A DNA stretch of 64,000 nt from Candidatus Baldrarchaeota archaeon (GCA_019056805.1 DXJG01000007.1:1992-65991), one strand, 5' to 3'. Shown: positions 1-64,000, counted from the first letter of the stretch. Notes: a model not told the origin generated them from the sequence alone. A program made the numbers and translations.

Positions 1-246
1 ACTCCTACAATAATTTATGATCATCATTTGTTAAGAGATGCAAAATATCGTGAAAGAGTAAGCAAAGTGTATGATGTAGCAAAAAGAGAAGATAAATATG
101 TTTTAACAGCAGCTGAGTTTTTGGGCGAAGAACCCATGATAATTAAAGCTATTAAATGGAAAGAAAACGAAGAAGAACTCGAAGAATATATAAAAATGGC
201 TCAAAAAGAAATGGAAAGTTTCATACGAAAAACTAAACAAAAATAA
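1..246 (+). CDS. Hypothetical protein, C-terminal fragment (reading frame is open to the window start)
   Basis: ORF track 28..246; the same frame has no stop back to position 1, so the gene probably begins upstream of the window. No recognisable motif. Confidence 0.4.
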   Translation, partial: TPTIIYDHHLLRDAKYRERVSKVYDVAKREDKYVLTAAEFLGEEPMIIKAIKWKENEEELEEYIKMAQKEMESFIRKTKQK

Positions 247-257
247 AAAGGGTTGGG

Positions 258-3200
258 TTATTGTTTTGAGGGTTTAACTAGACTTTTTTCCATTGCTGCT
301 CGCTTTCTTTTGCGCATAATTACTATAGCTACACCGATTATTGCCACAGCAATTATTACGAGGTACATTAATGGTATTTCTCTTGGTGGTGGTGCTTCTT
401 CTCCTGGTTTACCTATTGTTGGTATCCAGCCAGCCAAGAATTCTGCTAATGAGCTTACTATTGTTTTCTTTTGTTTGCCGGAGTATACTACTACTTCAGG
501 GTCTTCGTAGACGAAGTATCCGTCCCATTTCGGAAATCCTACGCTTAGGAAGTACATGGTACTTTGGAATGTCCATCCGCCAACGCTTGTTTCAGATTCG
601 TAGTCTGTGTACGTTGCAACGAAGGTGCTTAGCGGAATTGTGTGAGTTGAAACGTTGCAAACCATGCTTAGGTTTCCGCCCCAGATGTATGTGTCACCCA
701 TGTTTACCTCTGCAAACTTTAATCCACTAGTGTCTAGTGAAATTCTTGATGCTTCTACAATTTCATCTGGGGTTATTGGTGTTCCATCTTCACTTACTAC
801 TTCCCAGCTTCCACTTGTTTCTGCGTAGATGTAATAGTTGAGTGATAAGCTTAGGTTTTCTAAAACGGCTATGCCCGTTGGTAGGTCTAGATCCCAGTTT
901 CCTATATGTTGGTCTATCTTTATGCGAGCCTCTGTACTATTTGTTGCTGTTGAGTTTTCTACGTAGAAGTGTAGTTTGAAGGATAGTTCTTCAAGTGAAG
1001 CGTCTACCGGGCGTTCTTGGAATGTGCGGAGATCTGTGCCATAAATTTCTTCACCATACCATGCGTAGTAGCTTCTTCCAAACGGGAACATTGTACCATT
1101 AATGTCAAGATATGAAACACCGAATTCTACGCTTTCGTTTATTGGAAGTGTTAACATTCCGGTTTCATTGTAGATGCCAAAGGCTTCTCCGGGAGTAACG
1201 AATATTACATTGCCTACAGCTTCAGGTATGAAGTAATGAGTAGCCTCGTCTTCATCCATGATCAGATTGTCATTTGTATCGTTGTAGATAAATATACCTG
1301 CGTATTCGTATCTAAGATCTACATGGTAGGATTGGAAGGTTTCATTTTCTCCTGTTGAAACCCAGTATGATTGTTGGAAGCCGAACCAGAGCCATGTCCA
1401 AGTGACTTCTTCTTTAACCCAGTCCCAACCTTCTTCTTCAGCCTTTTTGAGGTAGTCTTCCCATGTCATGTTTCTTGCCATTCTTGCAATGTCCCAGTAT
1501 CCTGATTTAGGAGCATTTCTCTCGGTGTCCCAGAGAGTTTCATTTATTATGGCCATCGTCTCTGGTGAAACTGGTGTCATGTTTGTGTAGAACCAGTAGT
1601 ATGTTTCATTCCATCTGTTCCAATAGGTATTGGTGGATGTTCCCATCCAAGCATTTACAATTAATTCATCGCCGGGTATTACTGGGTTTGGATCGTACAC
1701 TATATTAACGTCAAGGCCATTTACTGTTTCATTCCAGCCGAATTCTCCAACATATACCCTCTTAACATAGAATTGATCATCTGTTGTACTTAGATCTCCA
1801 TCTAAGTCTAGTGCACCAGTTGTAGGATCTATTGTCCACTTTCTGTAACCCCAAAGACCCCATTCAGGGGATCCAACAATTACATCCCAAACTTCGTACC
1901 TGTAGGAAACATCGCCCCACCGAAGTTCTTCAAGATGCCAAGTCACGGGGTAACCCCAAGAGAGACGAGCTACCTTGATATGCTCAACATATAGATTTGT
2001 TGTGTAATTTACACCATTTACCGTTATATTGTATATTGGGAATTCATATTCGTAAGAGTAGAGGTCATTATAGTATCTTGGCGGTATAGTGTACCACCAT
2101 TCTGGGTGCAGAAGCCAGTTGATCGGTATTAGATCGTACCATGCACCTGACACTGTGTAAATACGGTAGTAGTCATACATTAGATTTATTGATCTATACT
2201 CGTTTATCCATACTGTTGTATTGTAGGTTTCACCGTTCCATGTGAAGGTTTCTGGTCCAGGATATTCATATCCGCCTAGTTCTACGGTCACTATTCCTAT
2301 AAACTCGTAGTCTTCTAAGCTTTCCAGATCTATTCTGGAACCGTTAAGCAGATACAAAACATAAGTATTGTTTTCCCAGTCATATTCTGGTTCAGGGATA
2401 ACTGTGTAATATATGGTACCACTTACGTTTACTTCAAAAAAGACAACCCTTAGATGACGGGATACATCTAGGAGTGTTCCATTAAACAGAGTAACATTAC
2501 CAGATTCAGTGGTGGAATCGTAGGTGAAATAGTCAACATATAATTTTATTAGGCTTTCTCTATCGTATGATCCCTGGTTTGTCAGATTTCCTATGAATAT
2601 TGCAAATCCTATTTCTTCGATATCCCAACAATCTATTCCAGATACCTTCGTGTATAAGCCTTGTCCCTTTGTAATGCTATAGGTCACACCATCTACGATA
2701 ATGTATCCTGTCGTAGCACCCTCATAATCGTAATGAATAAGGTACAAGGAACCATTTACTAAGGCGTAATCGTCTTCAGGAACTGCTCCACCCTCGCTCT
2801 TTGGCTGCTGTAGGCACCACCATGAAAGCCATTCGTACTCGTCACTTACACCTTCATATGGAAGCTCTACTCTTTCTTCTCCCACTAAGGTGTAATACCA
2901 AGATCTTTTGAACCATTCGGGTACAATTATGGACTTTCCATTGTATTCCCCGACATAATATGCTGATGGATATTCGATGTAGTATCTTTTACCATTTCTT
3001 TCAAAGTAATACATGTACATATAGTCGTAGTCATACCTTACGTAAATCTTTGTTCCGTTTTCAAGTAGAATATAGTATTCCTGTGCTATGTAGTCCCAGT
3101 CTATCCACCCCTTTGTAAGGTTAACCCATGTGGTTCCATTGATAACGGTAAAGTAACCACCAAACTCGACTGGTACTCTGCCGATCTTCTCAACGTTTAA

Positions 3201-6200
3201 ACAATAATTGTAGTCTGCTAACCATATAATTTCTCCATCTAGAGTAATTATGAAGTAGGCTTCTTCAAAAATACTCCACCATGGCGAACTCATATACGTT
3301 GTAATGTTGTAAGTCTCGCCAGTAGTTTCGTCGTAGATTGTTGCATTATATATGAATGCATGGTATGCTTCATATACGTAAATCTTTGTTCCGTTTTCTA
3401 ATATGTAGTAGCGTTTGTATTCGTAGGTTGTTGGATCCCATTCTTCACGTAGCAATCTGTATTCGTATTCGTATCCGTTCCAGAACTTTATTTCTTTTAA
3501 CGGTAGTTTTTCGCCGTTTATTAATATGTAGGGCTTACTTAAGATGAGATATTTCTTGCCATTTGATGTTTCTGCATAGTATCTTGTCTCTGGGTTGGGT
3601 ATGTATACTTCAACGCTTCCATTATTAATGGTATAGACTTTGCTGTATGCCCAGTCTTCTAAAATATGTTCTCCCCATGGTTCAGTATAATCTGGACCAT
3701 ATGTCCAGTTAAGCAAGTTAACACTAAAACTGTATCTTTGGTCATTGGCGTATTCGGTGAAACTCATATTCACTTGAATGAGATACTTTCCATCTTCTGT
3801 GGCGAAAGCACTATAATTGTTTACAATAATATAGGTTTCGTTTACGACTGTGTCTTTGTGATGCCAGTCTAGCCACATATTTATCCATTCACCAGAAGTC
3901 TGGTTGAAAGAGTAGTGTTCCCAATGCCATCCTTCAACTTCTTCCATCGTACCTGTGGTCTCATTCCATATTTCGTACGTACCATACTCGTAGACCTCTT
4001 TGTTAGTTTGATTGTAAACTATTATTTCTGTGGTGTTTTCTCTTAGATTTATTGTTGCAATTATTTCCAAGTTGCTCCATATAGTTTCATTTTCGCTCCA
4101 ATAGTAATTCCAACAGTTGAATCTAACTCTTATTCCATCGACATCGGTTACAAGCTGACTGCCACCTTCCATTTCTACTTCAACTATAAACCATTGGCCA
4201 GGATTAGTCGCAAAATACCAAGTTCCAGAAGTTGCTCCTTCTTGATCTCTAATTCTAACATTAATTACTGGTTTCTCTACGGAAAGTTGATGTGCATTTT
4301 CATATATCCACTCCCAGTCTCTTGGCCATATCCTCCACTGACTACTATATACGTAGTAGTCTATCCATAGGTTTGGCCCAGGATTTCCTATGAACTTCCC
4401 TTCAAATTCTAATATGATTTTATTATCTTCAACGGTTTTTGTGCCGCTTATTAGCTCGTAGAGCCGTAATTCAGAGGGTACCTCCTCGATTTTCCAACCT
4501 TCCACATAGTCAATGTATTGTCCCCATTCATCCTCTTTTAGTGTTTCATTCCAGTATTGGTAGAGCAGATAATAGTTAAAAGTACCGTCTGTATTATTGT
4601 AGAAGAGAAGCAAATTGGGTGAAGCCCAGTCTGTTGTTTCTACCTCATAATATTCTCCTGTTGTTTCGTCCCAGTAAACTCTTGTTACATTTATTTCTTT
4701 AGCAATAGTTACCCATTGCTCCATTAGATATGGTCCAAACACCCACTCCCTTGTTATTATTGTGGCATTTGGATCCCAAACATATGTGTCTAGGGTTTCA
4801 TTGTATACCCAGCCTCCATGATATACCCTGTATTCTTCATGCCACCCCGTCACATTAACATAGGTCCTCAAGCTATATGGAAGACGAATTACTATGCTGG
4901 CGTTTCTAAAATCAGCATCAGATATCCCGGTTATGTTTAGTCTTATGATAAATGTTTGGTTGATTCCAACACTACGGATTAATTCATAGTCTGTGTTTAA
5001 TATTTCTGCTAGGTACGTACCACCATACATCATGTCAAAGTATACTGCTACTTCGTCCCATGGACCGCCTATGGCGACCTCTTTGTATAAGCTTAGTTCA
5101 CTGTCCCAATAATAGTACGAGGATGTACTAATGTAATTGCTTTCATTGTCAAAGATGTTTAGATAGACATTGTATATTCCTTTTGGAGTTAGGTCGTTAA
5201 ACTGGCCTGTTATTACGAAGTTATATTGATCTGGGGTTTCAATTAGGGTTGTTTGACTTTGATTCAATGTAAAGAACTCACCCGTAGTACTGCCGTATGG
5301 GTCTGAATAGTTATAAATAGAGGTCCATGTAGACCAATCATTCGATGAGTAATCGTAGTAAATTGATAGATAGGCGGATATATTTACGGCCCACATATTC
5401 CAAGATAGATCTATTGTTCCAAGTTCGGTGCCTTCTTCAAATAGGAGTTTGGGAATTGTTATGTTTATCATTACAGGTGCGTTTAATTCAATCCATGTGT
5501 CTGGTGTAACCAAATACCAGGTTTCGGTTGTTGTGTTGTAGCAGAATATGTCGTAATGTGCTTTGGGGCCAAACTCCCAGCTTATGTCTCGGTATGTCCA
5601 GTTCCATCCCCATGTTTCGTTGTATAGTCTCCACCATACTCTTATCTCGGGTGGTAAATTCATTACTGATGGGTCGACATAAATTGCGTCTTCAGTTTCA
5701 TAGTATAGTAGCTCACTGAAGAACGGTATGATATGCAAGGTATACGTTGTATCAGCTAGCCAATTTCCTATGATTATTTTGAATCCTACAAAGTTTAAGC
5801 TGGCATTTCTTGCTCTTTCTATAGCGTCTCTTGCGTCAAAAGGCACTGAGCATTCTGGGGTCCCAAAGTCATATGACTGATAGGGTTCAACAGGGTTAAG
5901 TTCATCATTATAAAAGTCTATAAGTACTGATTCGATTGTCGCTCCGTTGTCTATGGAGGCATTAAATCCAGTTAAAAATTCAATTGCTCTTAGTTCTGCT
6001 ATTATTAAGATTTCTACAGTACCGCTATCCGCGCTTGTGTTGGAGAATGTTATAAATAGTTCTCCTTCGATGAAAGAAGCATTAAAGAAGGCTAAAACTC
6101 CTAATTCCTCATTGTAGAATATATATACATTTGGCTCTCCTTCTTCTCCTTCTTCTGGTGGTGGATATTCTGCTCCGCCTGCTTCTACTCTAAAGTGGTG

Positions 6201-6710
6201 CTCTGTGTTTTCAGTCCAGTCTCTTATGGTTACCGTAAACTTAACACAAGTTGCTCCAATGTCAGTTGCTCTTACAGCTATTTCTTCACCGTTTATACTT
6301 ATGGTTGTTCGATCTGTGCCTATGTTGGTGACTGCATAAGTATCTAAAACGTTAAATGCATCATCACAAAGATGTATACTTAATGAATCAATTATGGCGC
6401 CGCCGTCGATGCTTAGTGACAGTTCTTGTAGTCCCCTTACACCGTCAAGTGTGACGTAAATTAATAAATCTACAGTTTCACTGTCTTTTGAACTATTTTG
6501 AAAAGTGATTTCAAGCCCGTTTTCAATTAATGTATAATTGAAATAGTCTAGTGGTTTTCCTTCAGCATAATAGTCTACCATTATTACGGGGCTTTCTCCT
6601 TCCTGTTTTGGTATCATTGCCGAACTTAAGTTAATACTCGAAAGAACTATTAGTACACAAAGTATCACTGAAAAAAGAGGCTTAAAACCTATTTTATTTA
6701 CCATTTTCAT
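258..6710 (-). CDS. Giant cell-surface protein (2150 aa), signal peptide plus C-terminal transmembrane anchor, aromatic-rich and probably N-glycosylated
   Basis: Uninterrupted 6.45-kb ORF. N-terminus MKMVNKIGFKPLFSVILCVLIVLSSINLSSA looks like a signal peptide; C-terminus has one hydrophobic helix (LMYLVIIAVAIIGVAIVIM) followed by RKRKR. Very rich in Y/W/T/N/E with many N-x-S/T sequons and internal repeats (e.g. YILENGTKIYV twice). Confidence 0.85.
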   Translation of the reverse strand: MKMVNKIGFKPLFSVILCVLIVLSSINLSSAMIPKQEGESPVIMVDYYAEGKPLDYFNYTLIENGLEITFQNSSKDSETVDLLIYVTLDGVRGLQELSLSIDGGAIIDSLSIHLCDDAFNVLDTYAVTNIGTDRTTISINGEEIAVRATDIGATCVKFTVTIRDWTENTEHHFRVEAGGAEYPPPEEGEEGEPNVYIFYNEELGVLAFFNASFIEGELFITFSNTSADSGTVEILIIAELRAIEFLTGFNASIDNGATIESVLIDFYNDELNPVEPYQSYDFGTPECSVPFDARDAIERARNASLNFVGFKIIIGNWLADTTYTLHIIPFFSELLYYETEDAIYVDPSVMNLPPEIRVWWRLYNETWGWNWTYRDISWEFGPKAHYDIFCYNTTTETWYLVTPDTWIELNAPVMINITIPKLLFEEGTELGTIDLSWNMWAVNISAYLSIYYDYSSNDWSTWTSIYNYSDPYGSTTGEFFTLNQSQTTLIETPDQYNFVITGQFNDLTPKGIYNVYLNIFDNESNYISTSSYYYWDSELSLYKEVAIGGPWDEVAVYFDMMYGGTYLAEILNTDYELIRSVGINQTFIIRLNITGISDADFRNASIVIRLPYSLRTYVNVTGWHEEYRVYHGGWVYNETLDTYVWDPNATIITREWVFGPYLMEQWVTIAKEINVTRVYWDETTGEYYEVETTDWASPNLLLFYNNTDGTFNYYLLYQYWNETLKEDEWGQYIDYVEGWKIEEVPSELRLYELISGTKTVEDNKIILEFEGKFIGNPGPNLWIDYYVYSSQWRIWPRDWEWIYENAHQLSVEKPVINVRIRDQEGATSGTWYFATNPGQWFIVEVEMEGGSQLVTDVDGIRVRFNCWNYYWSENETIWSNLEIIATINLRENTTEIIVYNQTNKEVYEYGTYEIWNETTGTMEEVEGWHWEHYSFNQTSGEWINMWLDWHHKDTVVNETYIIVNNYSAFATEDGKYLIQVNMSFTEYANDQRYSFSVNLLNWTYGPDYTEPWGEHILEDWAYSKVYTINNGSVEVYIPNPETRYYAETSNGKKYLILSKPYILINGEKLPLKEIKFWNGYEYEYRLLREEWDPTTYEYKRYYILENGTKIYVYEAYHAFIYNATIYDETTGETYNITTYMSSPWWSIFEEAYFIITLDGEIIWLADYNYCLNVEKIGRVPVEFGGYFTVINGTTWVNLTKGWIDWDYIAQEYYILLENGTKIYVRYDYDYMYMYYFERNGKRYYIEYPSAYYVGEYNGKSIIVPEWFKRSWYYTLVGEERVELPYEGVSDEYEWLSWWCLQQPKSEGGAVPEDDYALVNGSLYLIHYDYEGATTGYIIVDGVTYSITKGQGLYTKVSGIDCWDIEEIGFAIFIGNLTNQGSYDRESLIKLYVDYFTYDSTTESGNVTLFNGTLLDVSRHLRVVFFEVNVSGTIYYTVIPEPEYDWENNTYVLYLLNGSRIDLESLEDYEFIGIVTVELGGYEYPGPETFTWNGETYNTTVWINEYRSINLMYDYYRIYTVSGAWYDLIPINWLLHPEWWYTIPPRYYNDLYSYEYEFPIYNITVNGVNYTTNLYVEHIKVARLSWGYPVTWHLEELRWGDVSYRYEVWDVIVGSPEWGLWGYRKWTIDPTTGALDLDGDLSTTDDQFYVKRVYVGEFGWNETVNGLDVNIVYDPNPVIPGDELIVNAWMGTSTNTYWNRWNETYYWFYTNMTPVSPETMAIINETLWDTERNAPKSGYWDIARMARNMTWEDYLKKAEEEGWDWVKEEVTWTWLWFGFQQSYWVSTGENETFQSYHVDLRYEYAGIFIYNDTNDNLIMDEDEATHYFIPEAVGNVIFVTPGEAFGIYNETGMLTLPINESVEFGVSYLDINGTMFPFGRSYYAWYGEEIYGTDLRTFQERPVDASLEELSFKLHFYVENSTATNSTEARIKIDQHIGNWDLDLPTGIAVLENLSLSLNYYIYAETSGSWEVVSEDGTPITPDEIVEASRISLDTSGLKFAEVNMGDTYIWGGNLSMVCNVSTHTIPLSTFVATYTDYESETSVGGWTFQSTMYFLSVGFPKWDGYFVYEDPEVVVYSGKQKKTIVSSLAEFLAGWIPTIGKPGEEAPPPREIPLMYLVIIAVAIIGVAIVIMRKRKRAAMEKSLVKPSKQ

Positions 6711-7031: not shown

Positions 7032-9194
7032 ATGAATGAAATATTAATTTCAGCTGTTTTGATCCTTTTACCTAATATTTTAATAGCTTTGATTGTCCTT
7101 TTGATGAGATATACTCGTTTTAAAGAAATTGCATTGCGTACAGGAATAGCCTTCTCTGCGTTTTGGCTAATATATTGTATTGGCTCAAGTATAGTTTTCA
7201 ATTTGATCGGAGTTGAACCGAACTTAGTTTATTCTTCCCGAGATTTTTCAATATCAAACTTAAAGACTCTTGCAACTTATGTAGTATCTCTAGCAATATA
7301 CTCTCTCACTTTGACAATCACTTACCCGGTTTTCATGTTCCCATTTGTTTTCTTCCTTGCTCCTATAATAGCCGTTTTAATTCTACTTTACGCCGTTAGA
7401 GGAAGAGGAATAAAAGAAATAACTTTTTGGATCGATTTAAAACCCAAAAGATTGATGGGGTGGGATGAAGAAAAAGAGGTTTTGAAACTTTTAATAGCTC
7501 TTCTACCTGTTTCTCTATATTTCTTAACATCATTACTACGAATATTGAAATACGAGGAAGATCCGCTTTCGGTTGGTAGTACCTTGTTGGGCTGGGTACT
7601 TGAAATTTATATGCTTTTTCTTTTATCTTTCATAGTGGCGGTGAATCTTCTTTATACTTCTCGTGTTTATCACGGAAACAGGTTTGTAGGTGAAACTATT
7701 AGAAGAAATACCTTCAATAATCTCTTATCTATAAGTATTGTGCTTTCGTCCGTAAGTCTTATACTTTTTGTACAAATTTTCAAGGGAATCATCTACGTTT
7801 TCATATACTTCTCACTATATTACATTGCGATAACTATTATTTTCCTTTCATTCTTCAAAGTAATGGAACCAACTTCCGTGTATATCTTTGCTAAAATTCT
7901 AACTTTTATGAGAGATGAAAATAAATTCCAAAGAATATTTGAAAAAAGAACGCTTGTACTAGGCATTATAGTTGGTATAGTGGTTACTTTAGCTTCTCTT
8001 TTCTGCACATACGCTTTTATATCGGTTTATTGGAGCTACGTGAATATAGATCTAGATGCCCTTTTAGGTGAATGTTCTTTAGATAGCAGCCCCTCCCTGG
8101 AAATTTTGGAAATTTTAAACATACTTATTTCTTTAGGATCTTTACAAAGATTTTTTGAAATAGCAATTATAATGTTTCTTATCTATGCGCTCAGAAATAT
8201 GGTTAAAATAAAATTTTTCATAGCTGGCATATATGTAGGCATATTTAAGGTATTTGCTGACTATCCCCTTTTACAGCGCGCAACTAAAGCTTGGACTACA
8301 ACTGTATTTTCAAGTGCGAACATTGGTTTCGTCAACATTTTAGTTCCAAGGTTTGCCTATCTAGGATTGACAACTTCTTATCTGGGTTCATCTGTCTATC
8401 AATTTATAGTCATACCTATACTTCTCCTTAAACTTTTAGCAACACTCTTAGTTTTTACTGTTTTAGTTTACTTAAAATTTGGTAAACTTGTTCAGTTTAT
8501 CGATGTTGAAGCTGGACATCAAATAAAATATATATGTGAAGTTGAACCTGACTATATTACTCCTAACTCGTTGATAAAACTGAAAATAGCAAAAATATTT
8601 GAAGAAAAAATTCCAGAAGATCTTTTACAGATCGTAGAATTCTTTAAGACAAAAACATACACTTTTCAAGAATTAAAAGAAAAATTAGGCATGCCTGATG
8701 AAAAATTAAAGAAAATTCTCCGATATCTGCATGAAAATTACATTATTGACATTTACGACTGCGAATTTAAAATAGTTACACCAGCACCAGTGATAGAAGG
8801 AATATATATTGTGAATACAGACGGTATAGCTCTGTACAGTAAGTCATTTGGTGAAGTAAAAGTCGAACCTTTATTGATTTCAGGTATGCTTTCAGCAATA
8901 ACTAGCTTCGTTAAAGAAACAACAAGAAGTCAACAATATTTGCAAGCTATTGATCACGGTGATGTCGTTCTCATGATAGAATATGGAGATGGATTTTTCG
9001 TCACCCTTTTGGCGAACAGAGAAACCCCTGAAATTCGTATGAAATTAAGGGAATTTGTTAGGCGATTCCAAGAAAAATACGGTGAAATTCTCAAACGATG
9101 GAGTGGAGATCCCGGTGAATTTGAAAATGTTGAAAAATTAGTCAATGAAGTTTTTGAAATCACATCTACTAGTGAAGAAATAACCACTACCTAG
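7032..9194 (+). CDS. Polytopic membrane protein with C-terminal cytoplasmic domain (putative roadblock/longin-like alpha/beta domain)
   Basis: First ~500 aa contain many hydrophobic helices; C-terminal ~220 aa are hydrophilic with pattern GIYIVNTDGIALYSKSFG...LISGMLSAITSF...FFVTLLAN...KRWSGDPGEF, homologous to the C-terminus of the 48963..51935 protein. Confidence 0.8.
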   Translation: MNEILISAVLILLPNILIALIVLLMRYTRFKEIALRTGIAFSAFWLIYCIGSSIVFNLIGVEPNLVYSSRDFSISNLKTLATYVVSLAIYSLTLTITYPVFMFPFVFFLAPIIAVLILLYAVRGRGIKEITFWIDLKPKRLMGWDEEKEVLKLLIALLPVSLYFLTSLLRILKYEEDPLSVGSTLLGWVLEIYMLFLLSFIVAVNLLYTSRVYHGNRFVGETIRRNTFNNLLSISIVLSSVSLILFVQIFKGIIYVFIYFSLYYIAITIIFLSFFKVMEPTSVYIFAKILTFMRDENKFQRIFEKRTLVLGIIVGIVVTLASLFCTYAFISVYWSYVNIDLDALLGECSLDSSPSLEILEILNILISLGSLQRFFEIAIIMFLIYALRNMVKIKFFIAGIYVGIFKVFADYPLLQRATKAWTTTVFSSANIGFVNILVPRFAYLGLTTSYLGSSVYQFIVIPILLLKLLATLLVFTVLVYLKFGKLVQFIDVEAGHQIKYICEVEPDYITPNSLIKLKIAKIFEEKIPEDLLQIVEFFKTKTYTFQELKEKLGMPDEKLKKILRYLHENYIIDIYDCEFKIVTPAPVIEGIYIVNTDGIALYSKSFGEVKVEPLLISGMLSAITSFVKETTRSQQYLQAIDHGDVVLMIEYGDGFFVTLLANRETPEIRMKLREFVRRFQEKYGEILKRWSGDPGEFENVEKLVNEVFEITSTSEEITTT

Positions 9195-10781: not shown

Positions 10782-13700
10782 GTGTTTCACCCTGATTTTA
10801 ACAAGAAGGCTTCTCCAACAACTAAATTAATATCTATGCTTCTGCTTTTAGCTCTTCTCTTAACCTACTGCTACTATCCAGCGACATTGTTTACGAATAC
10901 AAACTATCCGCAAACTACCTCCCTACTAATTTATAGAGACAATGAAACCACTGATAGCTTGACAAAGGTATCTTACGATGACGAAAATTTACAAGAATGG
11001 TTAAGTTCACTTAGAAGCTTAGAGGTTCCAGCAGGATCTCCAATGGATATTTATCCCGTTAGGGAGAGCATAGCTGTTGATTTATGGCCGGGAATCTATT
11101 TTCCGGAGGATGTTGAAATTTATAAGCCTCTTATAGAGGATCTTCATGCTCAAGGAATAAAATATATGATTTATAGGAATTTTTACATGGTTACTGATGT
11201 AAACTACACTTACCTATGTGAGTATTATCCTGGTTTCAATGCATCGAATGCTGGTTTTATAGATTTAGATGGAAACCCGTATATAGTAGATTATGATCCC
11301 TACGGTACACCAATATTTAGAGCTTCAACAAATAGACCTTATTGGCAAAGTTTTCTCATAAATTCAACGAAATTAGCTATCGATGCTGGTGTAGATGCTG
11401 TTGTTTTTGATGTTGGATTTGGACATTATCCTCCAAATGAGTTAAATTTTGATCCAGATAGCATTAAAGATTTTAGAGAATACCTAGCAGAAAAATATAC
11501 TTCAGAAGAATTGGCTTCAAAATTTAATATTTCTGACATTTCTACATTCGATTTTGGGCAGTATCTTAGAGATCTAGGATATAATGCTAGTAGTTTAAGG
11601 GAAGCTTTAACGCAAGGAACATCATTGGGATACTATGCTGATTTGTTATGGTCGGAGTGGTGTGAATTTCATCTTAAAGTTTTGGTGGAGTTTTATAAGA
11701 GACTTTATACCGAGGTAAAAGAATATGCTCAAAGTAAAGGACGAGATTTCTATGTTTTCTCCAATATTTATCATGGTCTTGATCCCCAGTACAATATACT
11801 CTATTTGATTAATTATGTGGATGGTATCTATGCAGAAATTTTCTTTGATGATTTACAGTATCCAAATAGAACTCCAGCAACAGTTTATAAGGTAGCTTAT
11901 AGTTTAGGGAAACATTATATCCCTATGACTTCTCCATCCAACGATTCGGAACTATATCCATTATATATTGCAGAGCTTTTTGCATGTGGCAGCTGGACGG
12001 GTGGAGCAGGAAACTATACTCCATATTTCCTTTTTGTTAACTCGCATCCTGAACTATTCAGTAAGGAACAGGACGGTGAAATAGGACTTGTTTACTCTTT
12101 AGCTTCAAGTGAAAACTATAGTTCATTTGAGGGTGCCTTTTACCTTCTCTCTGATACCCAGCGTAGTTTTGATGTTATTGTTTTTGGAGATAATAAGTGG
12201 TTTAATGAAAGCTTGACATTAAATGACTTGTTAAAGTATAGAGCAATTTTACTACCTAATACTGGTTATCTTACAGATGAACAAGTTGAATTGCTTCTGA
12301 ACTATGCTGAACAAGGTGGTATTCTAATAGGCATTGGAAGTGTTGGAACACGAAATGAAACCGGGGAAATTGTCAACTCAGAGACTCGAACAACGTTTAT
12401 CAGCCTTTTTAATGGTAGCATAGTTTCTTATGGAAGTGGAACAGTTATTTCATGGACCAGTGATATAGCTTTACAGTACTTATTGCAGAGAAATACAACA
12501 CTTTTAGAAGAATTTGAAAATAGATTAAGTGAAGTGTTTTCTCCCGAAATCATAACAAGCTTTACCCACAATACCACTATATTTCAATACTGGGATCCTG
12601 AATCTAATGCTATGATCTTTCATTTCTTAAATCGTGAATATGACTCCAAAAACGATGTAATAACACCTCAACACGATGTGAGCTTTAAGTTTACTTTAAG
12701 ACCTGAATTGGACGGTCTTCCTCTTGAAATAAGATTTTATTCACCGAATGACTATTTCGAAGGAATAGAGTTGACTTACAGCTCAGATCCTAATGGATAT
12801 GTGGAAGTAACAATTCCGAAAGTACATATATGGGGTATTTTGCGTGTGGAAGCTAAGAAAAAAGCAGTACAAGAAGATTTAGTAATTAACAGTCCAACCG
12901 TGCTTAAGGATCAAGTTATAGTTTTGAACGGTAACCTATTAGTTAACTCAAAGTTGACATTGGAGAATGTTATTTTAAAGATGAATAGTTCCCTTGACAG
13001 GGTGTTTCGAATAGAAGTTTATGAAGGAGGAGAACTTGTTATCAAAGACTCTGTCATTACTGCGTATGATCCAAAGTATCACTATTATGTTAAGGTGAAT
13101 AAGGGCAGTCGGTTCTATATGGAGAATAGTGAGTTAAGCCATGCTGGTGTTTGGGGACCTATGTATGCTGGAGGGCTGTGGATAAACACGGATGATGTCA
13201 TAATCTTAAACTGTACAATACATAGTAATTATGACTATGGAATACATGTATATAATGCTTCATACGTCGAGATAATAAACTGTAAAATTTACGGCAACAA
13301 TATAGGAATATACTTGCTCAATTCATCTTTCGTAACCATCTCTAAATGTAACATTTACGATAATTCAATTGGTATCTACGAAAAGGGAAGCTACTATTCT
13401 ACAATCAAACACAGTCATATCTCAAATAATTTATACTGGGGAATAACAATTTGGGACTCTCTATTCCCATTAATATCTGATAGTACCATTCATGATAGTG
13501 TCCATGATGGAATTATCATTTGGTACTCGTTTTTCGCAAAAATTTACAACTGCAAAGCTTACAGTAATGAAAATGGTTTTAACATACGATACACGCCTTT
13601 AGTGACAGTTTCAAGTAGCGAAGTGTATAACAATGAGGAGGCAGGCTTGTTTTTCTTCCATGTTGAGCTTCTGTATGGTCATCCGTTGGCAATTCTTGAT

Positions 13701-15104
13701 TCTCTTGGCACTATAGTTGCTAACAGTTTTTACAATAACACATATGGCATATACATGTTGGAAAGTGAAAAAACTAAGATTGAAGCTTGCAATATACTTG
13801 ATAACACGTGGGGAATATATGTTGAAGGAACTACTCAATGCACTTTCATTTTCCGTTCAAACTTCATTGATAACACCGATCACATTTATGTTGATGAAAA
13901 GGCTCAAGGAAAAATTCAATTTGACAACATAACAATTGGAAACTACTGGGATGACCACAGTGGAGAAGATGCTGATGGTGATGGTATTATTGATACACCT
14001 TATACTATTAACTCGGTAGATAAAGACTATAAGCCGCTAGCTAATCCAGTTACTATCGTAAAAATAGAAGATATATATGGGCCTATGATCACGGACATTC
14101 AAGTCGTGAAAGAAGAGGGAAATGAAAATTACAATTTAACAATATCTGTTAATGTCACTGATGATTCTTGGTTAAGTTGGGTTTTAATGAACGGAACAAT
14201 ACATAATTTGCCGGGTGGAGAAAACTATCCTTTGATGCGTATAATGGTATATTTCTACGATCCCTTTGCTACTATCTTAGGCTATGATAGGTCAAACTTC
14301 AATCTTCTTCCATCAGAAGGATATCCTCTCAAAACATGTACAGCTTCAACTCAGTTCACTTTTCCTCTTAGCTATAAGCCTCATTTCAAGATTTTTGCTG
14401 TGGATACCTATGGGAACTGGGCTGAAAATGACTCTACAACTCCTCATATAACTGGTATATTTTGGGATCCAAGTAGTCCTGAATATGATGAAGAGGTAAC
14501 TGTGTTTGTTCATGTATTTGATCAAAGCAGGATATCTGAATGTTTACTAAGTTACTTTAATGGAACAGAGTGGAATAACGTTTCAATGATATATAATGAG
14601 GAAACAAATGCAATGGTTGGAAGCATTCCAAAACAACCATATGGAGTTACAGTAGAATTCAAGGTAATTGTTAAAGATACTATGAACAATATAGCTGTAA
14701 GTGCAACTTATTCTTACACTGTTAAAGATACTACTCCGCCAATATTGAGAATAATTCAGCCAAGTGGCGGAGAAACAATTTCTAATGATGTTAATGTTAC
14801 TTGGGAGTCCTATGATGAAGGTTCGGGGTTAAAAGAATTCAAAATTTATTTAAATGGAACATTAAAAGCTACTTTGCCCCCTACAACATCCTGTTATCTT
14901 CTATCTAACTTAACACCAGGTTCTTACAATGTTACAGTTGAAGCTGTGGATAATGCTGGCAACCGTGCAACTGCATCAATAGTTTTCAAGTATGTCTCTG
15001 AAGAAGGTGGATTACCTAACTCTCTCATACTCATGGGAGGAACAATAGCCGGTGTTGTAATTATAGTTACAGTGTTTTTAATGAGAAAGAAACTAAAAGA
15101 TTGA
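10782..15104 (+). CDS. Large surface-anchored protein (1440 aa) with parallel beta-helix (PbH1/NosD-like) repeats and Ig-like domains
   Basis: N-terminal hydrophobic segment; central run of repeats of the type IINCKIYGNNIGIYLLNSSFVTISKCNIYDNSIGIY typical of right-handed beta-helix proteins; Ig-like region near the C-terminus; C-terminal TM anchor LILMGGTIAGVVIIVTVFLMRKKLKD. N-terminal ~600 aa may be a glycoside-hydrolase-like domain (weak). Confidence 0.85.
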   Translation: MFHPDFNKKASPTTKLISMLLLLALLLTYCYYPATLFTNTNYPQTTSLLIYRDNETTDSLTKVSYDDENLQEWLSSLRSLEVPAGSPMDIYPVRESIAVDLWPGIYFPEDVEIYKPLIEDLHAQGIKYMIYRNFYMVTDVNYTYLCEYYPGFNASNAGFIDLDGNPYIVDYDPYGTPIFRASTNRPYWQSFLINSTKLAIDAGVDAVVFDVGFGHYPPNELNFDPDSIKDFREYLAEKYTSEELASKFNISDISTFDFGQYLRDLGYNASSLREALTQGTSLGYYADLLWSEWCEFHLKVLVEFYKRLYTEVKEYAQSKGRDFYVFSNIYHGLDPQYNILYLINYVDGIYAEIFFDDLQYPNRTPATVYKVAYSLGKHYIPMTSPSNDSELYPLYIAELFACGSWTGGAGNYTPYFLFVNSHPELFSKEQDGEIGLVYSLASSENYSSFEGAFYLLSDTQRSFDVIVFGDNKWFNESLTLNDLLKYRAILLPNTGYLTDEQVELLLNYAEQGGILIGIGSVGTRNETGEIVNSETRTTFISLFNGSIVSYGSGTVISWTSDIALQYLLQRNTTLLEEFENRLSEVFSPEIITSFTHNTTIFQYWDPESNAMIFHFLNREYDSKNDVITPQHDVSFKFTLRPELDGLPLEIRFYSPNDYFEGIELTYSSDPNGYVEVTIPKVHIWGILRVEAKKKAVQEDLVINSPTVLKDQVIVLNGNLLVNSKLTLENVILKMNSSLDRVFRIEVYEGGELVIKDSVITAYDPKYHYYVKVNKGSRFYMENSELSHAGVWGPMYAGGLWINTDDVIILNCTIHSNYDYGIHVYNASYVEIINCKIYGNNIGIYLLNSSFVTISKCNIYDNSIGIYEKGSYYSTIKHSHISNNLYWGITIWDSLFPLISDSTIHDSVHDGIIIWYSFFAKIYNCKAYSNENGFNIRYTPLVTVSSSEVYNNEEAGLFFFHVELLYGHPLAILDSLGTIVANSFYNNTYGIYMLESEKTKIEACNILDNTWGIYVEGTTQCTFIFRSNFIDNTDHIYVDEKAQGKIQFDNITIGNYWDDHSGEDADGDGIIDTPYTINSVDKDYKPLANPVTIVKIEDIYGPMITDIQVVKEEGNENYNLTISVNVTDDSWLSWVLMNGTIHNLPGGENYPLMRIMVYFYDPFATILGYDRSNFNLLPSEGYPLKTCTASTQFTFPLSYKPHFKIFAVDTYGNWAENDSTTPHITGIFWDPSSPEYDEEVTVFVHVFDQSRISECLLSYFNGTEWNNVSMIYNEETNAMVGSIPKQPYGVTVEFKVIVKDTMNNIAVSATYSYTVKDTTPPILRIIQPSGGETISNDVNVTWESYDEGSGLKEFKIYLNGTLKATLPPTTSCYLLSNLTPGSYNVTVEAVDNAGNRATASIVFKYVSEEGGLPNSLILMGGTIAGVVIIVTVFLMRKKLKD

Positions 15105-31736: not shown

Positions 31737-31784
31737 ATGTGCATTAATGCACATAAAGTTTATATGTGCATTAATGCACATATA
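31737..31784. promoter_or_regulatory. Two copies of a perfect palindrome ATGTGCATTAATGCACAT (second copy extended to 24 bp TATATGTGCATTAATGCACATATA), centres 27 bp apart
   Basis: Read directly from the sequence; lies between the divergently transcribed regulator gene (start 31653) and the ABC operon (start 31887). Candidate operator pair. Confidence 0.6.
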
Positions 31785-47337: not shown

Positions 47338-47346
47338 GGGATTTTT

Positions 47347-53328: not shown

Positions 53329-54246
53329 CTAGGATAATATTTTTAGTACTTTTTCTTTTATTTCTTGAAGTGATGATAGAAGTTTTCCTAGTTTAAAGTC
53401 TCTTTCTTTTAGTATTGAAAACATAGCTATTTCATCGCTTATGTTGTAAACTGCGATGTATTCTCTTTTTATATGCCACAGTGCTAAGTCTGCTGTATCA
53501 AAGGTTATGTATCCGCTTTTACGTAGTTGCGAGAACATTGTTCTCACCGTCTCGATAGGTTTTATTAGAGATTTTGCAGATACATATTTTAGTTTCTTCG
53601 GGTTAATGAGTTCTTTGCTTATTGCTGAAGCTATTTCTAAACCGTCTCCCTTGTTTAGAATGAAAGATGCTAAGGCTTTTTGTTTTTTATTGAATTTTGC
53701 TAAGATTTTATGGATTTTCTCAGCCACTTCTTTTGCTTCTTTGGAAAGAACGCTATCTAAGAGTTTACAAACAACCGTTCTAGCTGTTCCCTCTGGTATA
53801 GATGTGGCCTCAACAACCACATTATGATTTCCAAATATTTTTCGTATTTCCTTTATGGAAATCTTTTTTATATCATATTTGCTGGCTAAAACGAATATTC
53901 TTGCATTCGGAGAATATTTTTTAAGATATTCTAGGGCTTTAAGATATTCTTGTTTTGCTTCATCGATTGTTTCTTTGTTAGAGGAGTCTACTACGAAGAA
54001 GAATGCACCTACGTTTGAAAATATTTTTCCTGACCATTGATCTGTGAAATATTTGTATATGAATTGTTTTTGTCCTCCTACATCAAAAGTTGTAACTTCT
54101 AATAAGCCTCTATACTTGTATGTTTTTGTACTTACAAATTCTGTTGGTTCTAAGTTCTTTACATCGTCCCAGTCTTTCCCTTCAAAAACATGTTTAACCA
54201 AAGATGTTTTTCCAGCTGCTCTTAACCCCATTATTAAAACTTTCAT
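53329..54246 (-). CDS. Small GTPase of the Arf/Sar/Rag-like type with a ~140-aa C-terminal extension
   Basis: G1 GLRAAGKTS, G3 DVGGQ (the form seen in Arf/Sar and Rag families), G4-like ASKYD; start set at the internal ATG (MKVLIMG). Confidence 0.85.
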   Translation of the reverse strand: MKVLIMGLRAAGKTSLVKHVFEGKDWDDVKNLEPTEFVSTKTYKYRGLLEVTTFDVGGQKQFIYKYFTDQWSGKIFSNVGAFFFVVDSSNKETIDEAKQEYLKALEYLKKYSPNARIFVLASKYDIKKISIKEIRKIFGNHNVVVEATSIPEGTARTVVCKLLDSVLSKEAKEVAEKIHKILAKFNKKQKALASFILNKGDGLEIASAISKELINPKKLKYVSAKSLIKPIETVRTMFSQLRKSGYITFDTADLALWHIKREYIAVYNISDEIAMFSILKERDFKLGKLLSSLQEIKEKVLKILS

Positions 54247-54376
54247 TTTAAACAACCTTTAATGCTATTTCAAAACTTGAATTTAATTTATTTACTTCTA
54301 AATAGAGTATATACTTTTCTATTAGAAACATATTATTACAATTAAAAATGTAGACTTCATTTGCAGAATTTCAACT

Positions 54377-55741
54377 TTAAGACGCAATAACGTAGGTAAT
54401 TGAGATTAAACAAAAGTTGATTAAAATATATAGAAGCAAGATTATTATTCCTCGTTTATTCACTAATTTTCCTTTAGAAGACCCTAAATATATTAGGATT
54501 CCAGAAATAAAGCTTAGAGTTGCATAGTGAATTTCTGAGGGATCAGGAAATTTTGGATAGAAAAGTTCTGGAATAAGTAGGGTTGGTAAATTCACTACTT
54601 TAAGCAATAGAAGTAGAAGTTCGATGAAAATCAAGATGAGACATGTTTTTGACAATTTTTCTCTAACCGTTATTAGCGAACATATGAGAAGTGAAGAAAT
54701 TAGCATTAATGTTAATGTGAAGAGATTATAGCCTACATAAATTAGATAGGTGATTATACAGAGAGATATTATAATTATGAGGTCTCTATATGGAAAACTT
54801 ATTCTTTGAGTGATTCTTTTGGCTTTTCTACTGCCTAAAGTTCCCATGGAAATAAGAAATCCGGATAGTAAGGCTAAAAATATGTATATATAGAAACTTG
54901 AGGTTATAGTCGCAGGAAAAGGCTGCAGACCTTTAATGACTGTTAAATTAAATAATTTTGTAGCTATTGCTTGAGAAGAGGTTAAAGCAAGTTCAACTAT
55001 AACTAATACATATACTAAATATAGTGGCCAGTCTTTTCTAGCGTATAAGTTGAAAAGAAGTGCTCCCCAAGTTGCATAAAATATTATGGTTGTAATTTCA
55101 TACATAGCAAATGAAAATGTAAGTAACACCATACCTAGGATGAATATAAGTCCCCTTATTGGTAAAGGTGACTCAGAGATCTCTGAAATTTTCCTATCTA
55201 CCTTTTCGACTAAGGCTGGCCTTTTTAATGGTTGAAATAATTTAACGTGTTTCTTATCTTCTACTTTTGGGGACAATGGTTTTTTGAGAGATTTCAATTG
55301 TTTATAGAAGGATTTTAATATTTTTTGATAATTGCTCCAGTTTTCTTGCATTTTTGATATAACATTTGATAACTTTTCTTTTACATCCTCTGAATCTTCA
55401 ATTTCATCTGCAATTATGGCCAAAGCGTATATTTCCTTACCTCCTCTAGCTTCTTCAGACTCTATATAAAATCTTTTAGCTAAACATTTGGTACCTGAAA
55501 TCGAGAACAAAGTGTATTCTAGTTCCTCCCCCATTCCAATCGCGTTTTTTGCTATTTTCTCTAAAATTTCGGGTTTTCGTGCAAAAAGTCTACCAGGATA
55601 TTTATTTACTGGTATGAAACCTTTAACTTCATCAAACTTACATAGAACTAAACCCTTTAGGTTAACTTTTCTATCTTTTACAGATTCTTCCACCTTAAAA
55701 TTACTTTCACTGGACTTTTGATTCTCTTTATTATTTGTCAA
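54377..55741 (-). CDS. Membrane protein with N-terminal cytoplasmic alpha/beta domain (possible roadblock/longin-like) and C-terminal polytopic region
   Basis: N-terminal ~150 aa hydrophilic (GLVLCKFDEVKGFIPV...EIYALAIIADEIEDSEDVKEKLSNVISKMQENW), then about 8 hydrophobic helices. Lies immediately upstream of, and on the same strand as, the GTPase gene. Confidence 0.75.
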   Translation of the reverse strand: MTNNKENQKSSESNFKVEESVKDRKVNLKGLVLCKFDEVKGFIPVNKYPGRLFARKPEILEKIAKNAIGMGEELEYTLFSISGTKCLAKRFYIESEEARGGKEIYALAIIADEIEDSEDVKEKLSNVISKMQENWSNYQKILKSFYKQLKSLKKPLSPKVEDKKHVKLFQPLKRPALVEKVDRKISEISESPLPIRGLIFILGMVLLTFSFAMYEITTIIFYATWGALLFNLYARKDWPLYLVYVLVIVELALTSSQAIATKLFNLTVIKGLQPFPATITSSFYIYIFLALLSGFLISMGTLGSRKAKRITQRISFPYRDLIIIISLCIITYLIYVGYNLFTLTLMLISSLLICSLITVREKLSKTCLILIFIELLLLLLKVVNLPTLLIPELFYPKFPDPSEIHYATLSFISGILIYLGSSKGKLVNKRGIIILLLYILINFCLISITYVIAS

Positions 55742-59844: not shown

Positions 59845-59876
59845 TTTTACTATTTTTGTTGTAAAATGTTAATTTA

Positions 59877-61774: not shown

Positions 61775-62230
61775 ACATTACACCTCCACTGGTAACATAA
61801 ATCATCTTCTATTTGTTAATTCGTTTTAGTAAACTTTCTTCACTACTGATTTCTCTCTAATTTAATTAATCTTATTTTAACAAGATAGCGGAAGATACGA
61901 TTTTATCACATAAGTTTAATAATTTAAAGGATAGCTTGATTTGATAGAATTAAAGGTTATCATTATTGAATTATTTAATAATATAATGAAGGTTACTAAG
62001 TTTATTTTTGAAAGACTATTAATTATATGATACTATTAGAAAATTAAATAGTTTAGAATATAGATTAAATAAAATTTTATGTTAAACTGTCAAATTGTTT
62101 TAAAGTTCTTGAGATAAATTTTTAAATATTCAAATTCTCTTATTTTAGCAAAAAATTACCTTCTAGCTTACTTTCTCGATCAAAGCAAAAAGCAAGATGC
62201 TCTTAAAAATGGGATAAGAGGTGTATAAAA

Positions 62231-64000
62231 GTGGATATCGCAGTTGAGCCAGAATGGTGGTACCTATGGATTCCTTTGCTAGCTAGCCTCATAGCTATTG
62301 GTGTGATTGCATATCTTATATCATACATTAAAAAGAAACCCGTTGGAACAGAGAAAATGAAAGAAATCGCCGAGGCTATCAGAATAGGCGCTAAGGCCTA
62401 TCTAAAACGTCAAAACACCACGATCGCCATGGTCGCCCTGATTATAGCTGTCGGTCTATACATATATGACTTTGTCAGTCACGGTGGAATCCCATTCTAT
62501 TCCCTTGCATTCGTTCTAGGAGCAGCAGCATCTACCTTAGCCGGGTACATAGGTATGAACATCTCCACAATTGCTCATGTAAGAACCACCGAAGCCGCTA
62601 GGAACCATAATCTTCCCGAAGCAACAAAAATCGCATTTCGTGGCGGTGCAGTCACAGGTTTAGGTATTACAAGTATAAGTATTCTCAGCCTCACCATCTT
62701 ATACTATGTTTATTCAATGATTGCCGGTGTTCCAAACCCAGAACTAGTAGTTAGCTTCGGTTTCGGTGCCAGCTTAGTAGGTCTTTTTGCCCAGCTTGGA
62801 GGCGGCATCTACACTAAGGGTGCAGATGTTGGTGCAGATATAAGTGGAAAGGTTGAAGAAGGAATTCCTGAAGATGATCCAAGAAACCCAGCAGTAATAG
62901 CTGACCTAGTTGGAGACAACGTAGGCGACTGCGCTGGCAGAGGAGCTGACCTATTTGAATCTTTCACCGATAACAATATTGGTGCTATGATTCTTGGAAT
63001 AGCACTCGTAGCATACTTTGGCTTCGCTGGCGTAGTATTTCCATTAATTGCAGGTGCCATCGGCATCGTAGCCTCAATTATCGGTATCTTAACCGTAGGT
63101 AAAATTAAGAAAGATGACCCAATGATGTCAATAAATGCAGGATACATTCTAATGGGTATCACGGCAGCGATTTTGTTCTATATCTCCATAGTATTAATGT
63201 TAGGAGGAAAAATTGTCTTTTTCATCGATATTGTTATTGGCATAATCACCGCTGTTTTAGTTGGCCTCTTAATACAATATTACACCAGCTATCAATACAA
63301 GCCAGTTAAGACCATAGCTGAGGCAGCAAAAACAGGGCCTGCAACAAACGTTATCACAGGACTAGCAGTCGGAATGAAGAGCACTGGAATACCACTCATC
63401 GTATTATCTGCTGCGATAATTATCTCGTACATAATCTCTGGCGGATTAGTCGACCATAAGATGGGCTTTTACGGAATCGCCATGGCTACACTGGGCATGT
63501 TATCTATGACCAGTATAATCATGTCCTCTGACACATTTGGCCCAATAACCGATAATGCCGGTGGAATTGCAGAAATGTCTGGCCTTGGCGAAGACGTTAG
63601 AAAAATCACTGACATGCTAGACTCTATTGGTAACACTACAAAAGCTATAACTAAAGGATATGCCATGGGCTGTGCAACACTTTCAGCATTCGTCCTCTTT
63701 GCATCATACCTTGAAATAGTATCCGCAAGGATCCCAGATTTCACCATTAGCCTAACATCGCCTGTAACGATTCTAGGACTGTTTCTTGGAGGAATTGTTC
63801 CATTCCTATTCTCAGCATACGCAATAGAGGCTGTTGGAAAAGCAGCATTCAAGATTGTAGAGGAAGTAAGAAGACAATTCAGAGAAATACCTGGATTAAG
63901 AGAAGGAAAAGCAAAGCCGAGATACGATGTGGCTGTTGACATTGCGACAAAGGCAGGTATAAAGGGTATGCTTATCCCTGGTGCCATAGGTATTATAAGT
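62231..64000 (+). CDS. hppA: Membrane-bound H+-translocating (V-type) inorganic pyrophosphatase, 5' portion; runs off the window end
   Basis: My own translation from the GTG at ~62231 gives [55 protein letters not shown], the canonical PPase motifs. Not in the ORF track because the frame has no stop before the window end. Confidence 0.93.

Follow-up and report, generated by a model that had tools for sequence, protein, structure and literature searches.

Does a concentration of very large surface-protein genes on an archaeal chromosome mark a region specialised for adhesion, or do such genes lie there as ordinary neighbours of other genes? The question arises from a 64,000-nucleotide stretch of Candidatus Baldrarchaeota archaeon (GCA_019056805.1 DXJG01000007.1:1992-65991; the whole stretch is called the window below), in which a preliminary description had noted five long genes, here named A to E, for secreted membrane-anchored proteins and had proposed an adhesion-specialised region or accessory island. 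Our analysis makes it probable that the window is instead an ordinary, largely conserved chromosomal segment of Baldrarchaeia, in which five unrelated, N-glycosylated envelope genes stand among housekeeping genes without forming a functional or mobile unit. Judged by its proteins, the host is a Baldrarchaeia-class Asgard archaeon: the 90%-identity cluster of the window Cdc48 includes proteins labelled Baldrarchaeota or Baldrarchaeia, the CoA ligase of the window shares 73% identity with that of Ca. Baldrarchaeum yapensis, and a RagA/Arf-type GTPase is encoded as well.

The five open reading frames (ORFs) themselves are as they had been described. ORF calling recovered exactly the same coordinates and lengths of 544-2150 amino acids (aa), with a total of 20.3 kb where about 20 kb of 64 kb had been given, and the five proteins are recorded from an NCBI contig of 108,296 nt and, without any difference, from separate JGI and Logan assemblies, so that the ORFs are real and not assembly artefacts. 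By hydropathy and inspection, each protein has a hydrophobic signal-like segment at its N-terminus, as had been claimed. The C-terminal transmembrane (TM) anchor attributed to all five is present in A, B and C, each time as one helix with a short basic tail behind it; D has seven TM helices at its end, and in E the TM helix is followed by a 238-aa tail. BLASTP finds no similarity among the five, which are therefore not a duplicated family, in keeping with the differing domain types that had been noted. As for the domains named, Pfam scans, which covered the larger window ORFs, gave firm support to the beta-helix of B and to Invasin_D3 in D, and the other immunoglobulin (Ig), PKD and FG-GAP matches fell below the curated cut-offs. 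PDB sequence searches with A, B, D and E returned nothing or only trivial matches.

What unites the five is their density of N-glycosylation sequons (NxS/T; z-scores were taken against shuffled sequences). A, B, C, D and E contain 65, 31, 16, 36 and 40 sequons (z = 11.9, 4.8, 3.5, 5.8 and 8.9, respectively), which corresponds to 2.15-4.04 per 100 aa, or 2-3.5 times the shuffled expectation. The other 31 window ORFs together hold 31 sequons in 11,117 aa (0.28 per 100 aa), fewer than the 42.5 expected from their own shuffles, and the enrichment picks out A to E and no other ORF in the window. The placement of the sequons also fits the predicted topology, with none past residue 1298 of D and 38 of the 40 in E ahead of the TM helix. 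Since sequon richness is limited to these five, they appear to be true surface glycoproteins; from their sequences, all five are predicted to be exported, sequon-rich surface proteins. At least two of them are unlikely adhesins, as C is internal to an operon of ATP-binding cassette (ABC) and FtsX transporter genes and B resembles an anchored enzyme.

The surroundings of these genes speak against an island. A to E are interspersed with genes for Cdc48, PEPCK, a DEAD helicase, an ADP-forming CoA ligase, saccharopine dehydrogenase and others. In a relative represented by the 87-kb scaffold_145 of DOMB18-1 (loci L008 and L014), orthologs of A, C and D keep both their order and their housekeeping neighbours, the conserved order extending over ~40 kb. 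Identities to the window proteins are 75% for A, 84% for C and 55% for D, 77% for H (a neighbour of A described below), 93% for Cdc48, 86% for PEPCK and for FtsX, 81% for AsnC, 79% for the CoA ligase, 77% for the DEAD helicase, 74% for NUDIX, 73% for GDPD and 66% for the ABC ATPase. Three blocks are absent from this scaffold, each at a different place: B; an ABC2 ATPase, a 12-TM permease and E, between PEPCK and NUDIX; and a 190-aa ORF, a RagA-like GTPase and a 454-aa 7-TM protein. D is syntenic in another relative as well (L005), and B is polymorphic, being present in L035 and L047 and absent from L008, L038, L041 and L043. In a more distant genome (L007), the A ortholog (54% identity) lies between S6e/eIF2-gamma and Rpb7/Spt4. 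Conserved synteny marks A, C and D as core genes, and B and E are independent presence/absence polymorphisms; the proposed accessory region does not survive the comparison with relatives.

Composition leads in the same direction. The window has ~34% GC overall and 0.30-0.40 along its whole length. Codon usage, which had been named as a possible sign of an accessory island, sets apart A as the sole compositional outlier, with a GC content at third codon positions (GC3) of 0.36 vs 0.21-0.31 in the other genes. Third codon positions of minus-strand window genes are, however, enriched in C and A, an asymmetry that is consistent with replication-strand skew and can mimic a gene-specific codon bias, and A orthologs in two other genomes have the same gene-specific bias. 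As the bias of A is thus partly strand-wide and common to its orthologs, it gives no sign of recent transfer. Codon usage was likewise rejected as decisive proof of transfer or of high expression of A, given that minus-strand genes share the C/A trend. RuBisCO in L008 shows a codon pattern like that of A. At the level of single codons, minus-strand genes prefer NNC in two-fold and NNA in four-fold families, and plus-strand genes prefer NNT. No integrase or transposase appeared among the Pfam results of the scanned window ORFs, flanking repeats not having been searched, and the 64-kb window contains no tRNA or tmRNA gene. Neither a block-wide composition, nor mobility hallmarks at the borders, nor gain and loss as one block was found.

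A horizontally acquired or strain-variable block for attachment or surface interaction would account for the 32% of the window given over to large surface proteins, for the lack of B and E in a relative and for the deviant GC3 of A, yet we regard it as highly improbable. The synteny that A, C and D share with housekeeping genes largely refutes it; B and E are two distinct indels ~34 kb from each other, C belongs to a transporter operon, neither a tRNA gene in the window nor an integrase among the scanned ORFs accompanies the supposed block, and the bias of A is partly a strand effect that its orthologs share. Rather unlikely, too, is a non-mobile envelope neighbourhood in which A with H, B, C with its ABC genes, D, and E with the ABC2 genes are kept near one another for co-regulation or co-translational insertion. 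Surface glycoproteins do account for five of the ~36 large ORFs and for 36% of their encoded residues, several more membrane proteins and transporters are found in the window, and the long-range order of A, C and D is kept in the relative. The genes between them, however, are cytoplasmic housekeeping genes on both strands, A sits next to ribosomal, translation and transcription genes in L007, and Ca. B. yapensis has no D beside its CoA ligase. Moreover, other loci of these lineages carry further giant sequon-rich ORFs, including an S8 peptidase of 1728 aa and E-like paralogs in tandem, which hints at a high background of giant surface genes, although the loci were sampled via surface genes and are hence biased.

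The giant proteins might also be mainly extracellular enzymes or nutrient-capture devices for polymer degradation and not coat proteins or receptors. The beta-helix of B, typical of polysaccharide-active enzymes, together with a weak GH42M-like match, the weak X25/CBM60-type matches of D and the S8 peptidase at a relative's locus would suit such a role, which we still hold to be improbable: searches with A, C, D and E revealed no catalytic family, and the longin domain of E and the seven TM helices of D suggest transmembrane coupling and not simple tethering. Several points weigh against our reading of the window as an ordinary chromosomal segment with five unrelated glycoprotein genes. The 32% share, which is high mostly because of gene length, is a figure for this window only and leaves room for local enrichment; S6e and eIF2-gamma, which lie beside A in L007, do not have its codon bias; signal peptides and TM segments were predicted by hydropathy and inspection and not by dedicated predictors; and all functional roles are read from sequence. 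The abundance of envelope genes fits the published Asgard envelope, with many surface proteins and no ordered surface layer (S-layer), and many large surface proteins in one region are what may be expected for Asgard archaea. L. ossiferum has no ordered S-layer and numerous surface proteins (PMC9834061), and cultured Lokiarchaeia appear to have no ordered S-layer (PMC9834061, PMC11284389). Two leads emerge from the window: A together with its partner H, and the longin domains tethered to the membrane in E and H.

Table 1 Surface-protein genes of the window, their domains and associated genes (residue numbers refer to the encoded proteins).
Feature	Coordinates	Strand	Description
A	258..6710	-	2150-aa predicted type-I membrane glycoprotein: signal peptide, ~2,080-aa all-beta ectodomain, TM 2114-2132, basic tail
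A, conserved C-terminal module (~residues 1555-2080)	471..2048	-	phmmer stretches ~80-605 of the 675-aa query; P0010 alignment
A, N-terminal tandem duplication (residues 36-195, 196-350)	5661..6605	-	local alignment 173 vs shuffle mean 31.7, z = 23.6
H	7032..9194	+	720-aa polytopic membrane protein, ~11 TM, C-terminal soluble domain
H, longin-like domain (residues 585-708)	8784..9155	+	homologous to the E cytoplasmic tail
B	10782..15104	+	1440 aa: ~650-aa N-terminal region, beta-helix 744-1061, Ig/fn3-like domains, TM 1415-1433
ABC operon	31737..35828	+	ATPase 31737-33008, C 33005-34639, MacB_PCD/FtsX permease 34617-35828; overlapping coding regions
C	33005..34639	+	544 aa: signal peptide, beta-sandwich repeats (weak Ig/PKD-like), TM 492-510, 34-aa tail
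D	37526..42442	+	1638 aa: signal peptide, ~1,300-aa ectodomain fused to C-terminal 7-TM domain
D, 7-TM domain (residues 1360-1621)	41603..42388	+	N-out/C-in; loop K+R 3 outside vs 22 inside
ABC ATPase and 12-TM permease	46555..48948	+	Pfam ABC_tran 4.8e-28; convergent with E; absent with E in the DOMB18-1 relative
E	48963..51935	-	990-aa predicted type-I glycoprotein: signal peptide, ~700-aa ectodomain (38 sequons), TM 734-752, 238-aa tail
E, longin-fold core of the tail (~residues 774-879)	49299..49616	-	small helical, winged-helix-like domain follows
Gtr1/RagA-Arf-type GTPase and 454-aa protein	53329..55741	-	GTPase 53329-54255, 454-aa protein 54377-55741; Pfam Gtr1_RagA 3.7e-27

The largest of the five proteins, A, has no match in Pfam, NCBIfam or PDB sequence searches, lenient Pfam scans of its sub-regions included. 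It had been described as consisting of aromatic-rich repeats; the richness in W (4.4%) and Y (9.0%) is confirmed, but the protein is barely repetitive beyond one N-terminal tandem duplication (Table 1), which is missing from distant family members, the alignment with P0010 starting at A residue 369. Its tail begins MRKRKRAAMEK, and a PGF-CTERM motif is not visible in the sequence. Full-length orthologs share 52-76% identity with A, and remoter relatives 34-39% over a quarter to a third of the length, with one spanning most of it at 27-34%. Searching 1.84 billion proteins by phmmer with the C-terminal 675 residues of A returned 118 representatives, 74 of them at E < 1e-30. Members of the family are mostly 1,850-2,500 aa long and carry the conserved module near the C-terminus. 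Their named sources are Baldr-, Odin-, Thor- and 'Asgardarchaeia', with a few labelled Bathy- or Micrarchaeota, and all are annotated as 'hypothetical'; the family is small and, by its named members, largely confined to Asgard archaea. Signal peptide and single TM helix are kept in the A orthologs checked that have complete termini, and the orthologs contain 63-79 sequons (48 in the truncated P0007). Within the conserved module, residues 1635-1646 (window 1773-1808, minus strand) form the motif DLDGDLSTTDDQ (DLDGDLxTTxDQ), which does not vary among the 11 sequences of the A-family alignment, the most distant of them at 34% identity. The motif is similar to acidic calcium-binding loops and may be a loop of this kind.

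With its size, signal peptide, TM helix, basic tail and dense sequons, A resembles archaeal S-layer glycoproteins, and it would be the best candidate for a major, S-layer-like component of the surface coat. Homology to a described S-layer family was not found in the Pfam, NCBIfam and PDB sequence searches. In thermophiles, S-layer proteins have roughly one sequon for every 30-40 residues (PMC11284389), and A has one per 33 aa. The protein PySLP of Pyrobaculum arsenaticum (292 kDa; bioRxiv 10.64898/2026.08.21.746120) shares with A a signal peptide, a mainly beta ectodomain of >2,000 aa, many NxS/T sequons, one C-terminal TM helix, a short and highly basic tail and lineage-wide conservation. Unlike PySLP, A has no recognisable array of Ig domains and is unusually rich in W and Y. 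For the thermophilic Asgard lineages, the A family provides a specific candidate for the chief component of the envelope.

A is genetically paired with H, a gene for a polytopic membrane protein without sequons and without a Pfam match. The two genes are divergently transcribed across a 321-bp spacer. A adjoins H in all eight H-type loci that have enough upstream DNA, and also in L008 and L009; the pairing is not seen for more distant A homologs.

H connects A to E, the last of the five genes, through a shared domain. The C-terminus of H matches the cytoplasmic tail of E in BLASTP (29% identity over 111 aa, E = 4e-11) and the tail of P0013 (32% identity, E = 4e-12). An AlphaFold2 (AF2) model of the E tail is confident, with a predicted local distance difference test score (pLDDT) of 78.7 and a predicted template modelling score (pTM) of 0.75, and runs from a helix through two strands, a helix, three strands and a helix into a small helical domain. 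It contains the longin/roadblock core, that is, a five-stranded antiparallel sheet between helices in the order beta-beta-alpha-beta-beta-beta-alpha. Its best structural matches are the longin domains of Sec22b (score 11.8) and VAMP7 (11.1) and TRAPP Trs23 (11.0), followed by AP sigma subunits (10.8-11.0), Sedlin (10.7), a Lokiarchaeota longin domain (8yqg, 10.6), MglB (10.4) and SRX (10.3). On the strength of this model and of the homology between E and H, the E cytoplasmic tail and the H C-terminus are assigned as predicted domains of the longin/roadblock superfamily.

A metagenome scan with the alignment of the E and H tails revealed two recurrent architectures. E-type proteins have a signal peptide, a ~1,000-aa ectodomain with 45-67 sequons, one TM helix and the longin tail, and H-type proteins (714-733 aa) have 10-13 TM helices, the longin domain at the C-terminus and 0-1 sequons. 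Homologs of E range from 894 to 1467 aa with the same architecture. The known longin/roadblock proteins (Sec22b, VAMP7, TRAPP Bet5/Trs23, MglB and those of Asgard archaea; PMC10933270) differ from E and H in that the domain here is C-terminal; in E it comes after a glycosylated ectodomain of ~700 aa and a TM helix, and in H after a domain of 10-13 TM helices. The longin SNAREs have the opposite arrangement, with the longin domain at the N-terminus and the tail anchor at the C-terminus. No published description of a protein with the order ectodomain, TM helix and longin domain was found in a limited literature search.

The longin fold regulates small GTPases in eukaryotes and bacteria and acts as a docking or regulatory platform, so that E and H could connect GTPase signalling with the cell surface. 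E would be receptor-like, its single TM helix connecting a glycosylated ectodomain with a longin domain in the cytoplasm. A wider proposal combines these elements: E and H would represent an undescribed way of tethering longin domains to the membrane, H being obligatorily paired with A, and would provide an outside-in link to Rag/Rab-like GTPase, roadblock and TRAPP-like (V4R) modules, with A as the S-layer or coat counterpart. We put this forward tentatively, as a possibility that is on balance doubtful. If true, the small GTPases of Asgard archaea would gain a membrane address and an extracellular input.

The genomic contexts that bear on this link are varied. In L019 (6283-14493; L020 is alike), a same-strand cluster surrounds an E homolog (1364 aa, 62% identity). 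Upstream of it lie a winged helix-turn-helix protein (188 aa), a V4R/TRAPP-like protein (156 aa) and a 175-aa ORF; past it follow a second V4R/TRAPP-like protein (192 aa), a Robl_LC7 protein (153 aa), a 194-aa ORF and a Ras-family GTPase (196 aa). The GTPase match is at 2e-27, and the V4R/TRAPP matches are under the curated cut-offs. With its longin, Bet3-like and Rab-like parts, this cluster resembles a membrane-tethered set of TRAPP-core type. In L054 (7581-9398) and also L055-L057, a 435-aa protein with one TM helix is remotely similar, at residues 141-257, to the longin domain of E and H, and a gene for a 167-aa Ras-family GTPase (Pfam 1e-28) begins 7 bp after it. In the window, the RagA-like GTPase and the 454-aa protein are encoded 1.4 kb away from E and share no operon with it, the GTPase gene being directly downstream of the 454-aa gene. 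The latter protein has a soluble N-terminal domain of ~190 aa (weak matches: Folliculin E = 0.048, DENND11 E = 0.071) followed by seven TM helices and may be a membrane-bound longin/DENN-like regulator of the Rag-like GTPase; BLASTP finds no similarity between its N-terminus and the tails of E and H.

A number of observations count against the roles suggested here for A, E and H. No Pfam longin or roadblock family (Longin, Robl_LC7 and relatives) matches E or H at E <= 5, or the H tail at E <= 0.1, and the topology of H is ambiguous by crude hydropathy. The AF2 model of A residues 1001-2150, built from 11 sequences, has a mean pLDDT of 45, is confident only at ~1310-1570 and is predominantly beta, and a Foldseek search of the PDB with this poor model gave nothing at E <= 0.001. 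The commonest context of E-type genes is UbiA together with a 1484-aa protein, with no match to two GTPase queries, and most E-type and H-type loci of the scan are likewise without a match to these queries. The link between E and GTPases draws on one relative's locus, on proximity in the window and on the distant family of L054-L057, and is suggestive but not general. A general operon link of E with a GTPase was not upheld, as P0014, P0015, P0018 and most scan loci show UbiA and the 1484-aa protein. The latter (L021 2140-6594; also L022, L033 and L048) has several TM helices, 10 sequons and no Pfam match, and its gene recurs upstream of UbiA and E-type genes in a conserved three-gene arrangement.

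Longin and roadblock architectures of Asgard archaea are hugely diverse (bioRxiv 10.1101/2020.10.19.343400). A published account (PMC10933270) describes as unknown what the small GTPases of Asgard archaea and their longin/roadblock partners do and how they are targeted to membranes, and notes that such operon links are rare in MK-D1. A receptor-like protein that carries a longin domain on its cytoplasmic side would be a direct, testable handle on these roles and this targeting.

D represents another way in which an ectodomain may be joined to the membrane. Its Invasin_D3 match (37.6 bits vs a cut-off of 33) stands alongside Big_1-type Ig-like domains. FG-GAP (E = 0.015) and FG-GAP_3 (E = 0.027) are both sub-threshold, and PF13517 is precomputed for four homologs; lenient Pfam scans add the weak X25/CBM60-type matches. 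The 7-TM topology obeys the positive-inside rule (Table 1). All seven full-length homologs of D (43-75% identity) have seven TM helices, and their C-terminal 299 aa share 61-92% identity, so that the 7-TM domain is the most conserved part of the protein. This region has no Pfam match, and the search of the PDB with a profile of D homologs was empty. Adhesion G-protein-coupled receptors (GPCRs) and the bacterial 7TMR-DISM proteins have, like D, a big adhesion-type ectodomain followed by seven TM helices with the N-terminus outside and the C-terminus inside. In sequence, however, D matches no 7-TM family, and it lacks a GAIN domain, a 7TMR-DISMED domain and, apart from a conserved 40-aa loop, any cytoplasmic output domain; the likeness is architectural only. 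D may consist of an FG-GAP/Ig ectodomain coupled to a conserved 7-TM module.

In B, the parallel beta-helix is firmly supported by Pfam (Beta_helix 5.6e-33, PF13229 114.2 bits vs a cut-off of 25.9; NosD 7.8e-24; Big_7 1.1e-5) and by the para_beta_helix repeat TIGR03804 (60.5 bits vs 19.45), and the N-terminal region has a weak Glyco_hydro_42M match (0.0024-0.0058). An assignment as NosD is not supported, as TIGR04247 reaches 78 bits, far under the equivalog cut-off of 300. B shares the repeats of parallel beta-helix and NosD-like proteins and has in addition the N-terminal and Ig-like domains and a TM anchor. From these domains it looks like a polymer-active surface enzyme or binder, and would act on extracellular polymers as a membrane-tethered beta-helix protein.

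C lies between the two transporter genes of its operon, whose Pfam matches (ABC_tran 5.2e-37, FtsX 6.2e-20, MacB_PCD 5.2e-18) are all above the cut-offs and whose order is the same in L014-L017. C and its neighbour FtsX are conserved to a similar degree, at 84% and 86% identity. As in MacB/FtsX (type VII) ABC transporters, an ATPase and a MacB_PCD/FtsX permease are encoded in overlapping frames and a conserved arrangement; the operon differs from these systems in its partner, a TM-anchored, glycosylated 544-aa beta-sandwich protein, and in an ATPase with an extra 4-TM region. From this setting, C is probably an extracytoplasmic partner of the MacB/FtsX transporter and not a free adhesin, and would serve a transporter of the mechanotransmission type. 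The unusual 4-TM region of the ATPase (31737-33008, plus strand) is N-terminal (residues 63-166) and precedes the ABC domain.

Beyond these genes, Pfam identified in the window the housekeeping proteins DEAD-box helicase, Cdc48, GTP-dependent PEPCK and ADP-forming CoA ligase, as well as saccharopine dehydrogenase, a MoxR-VWA ATPase, a CAAX protease, EamA transporters, an M55 peptidase and the Gtr1/RagA-Arf type small GTPase; Rfam has no match in the window. Two tandem paralogs of 408 and 410 aa, F and G (15334-18875), share 55% identity and have no Pfam match, the lenient scan included. Remnants of a degraded third copy are found at 18215-18376 and 18585-18875, and the DOMB18-1 relative has one copy only at this locus. 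F and G were considered as secreted proteins and rejected, each having a single N-terminal TM helix followed by an R/K-rich stretch, with 1-2 sequons; the bulk of each is probably cytoplasmic. A gene for a 106-aa Urm1/ThiS-type ubiquitin-like protein with a GG C-terminus (19072-19392, plus strand; Pfam Urm1 2.3e-13) is immediately followed downstream by a carbon-nitrogen hydrolase gene. At 22907-23614 (plus strand), a 235-aa coiled-coil protein with a C-terminal TFIIE-alpha-like winged helix (E = 7.5e-4) is encoded, and its gene adjoins those of a 779-aa MoxR-type AAA+/VWA fusion and then a CAAX (Rce1-like) protease (24059-27439, minus strand). Two H+-translocating pyrophosphatase genes (697 and 727 aa) lie in tandem at the right end of the window (62231-64000, plus strand), where the first crosses the window edge, and continue in L011 at 14171-18695.

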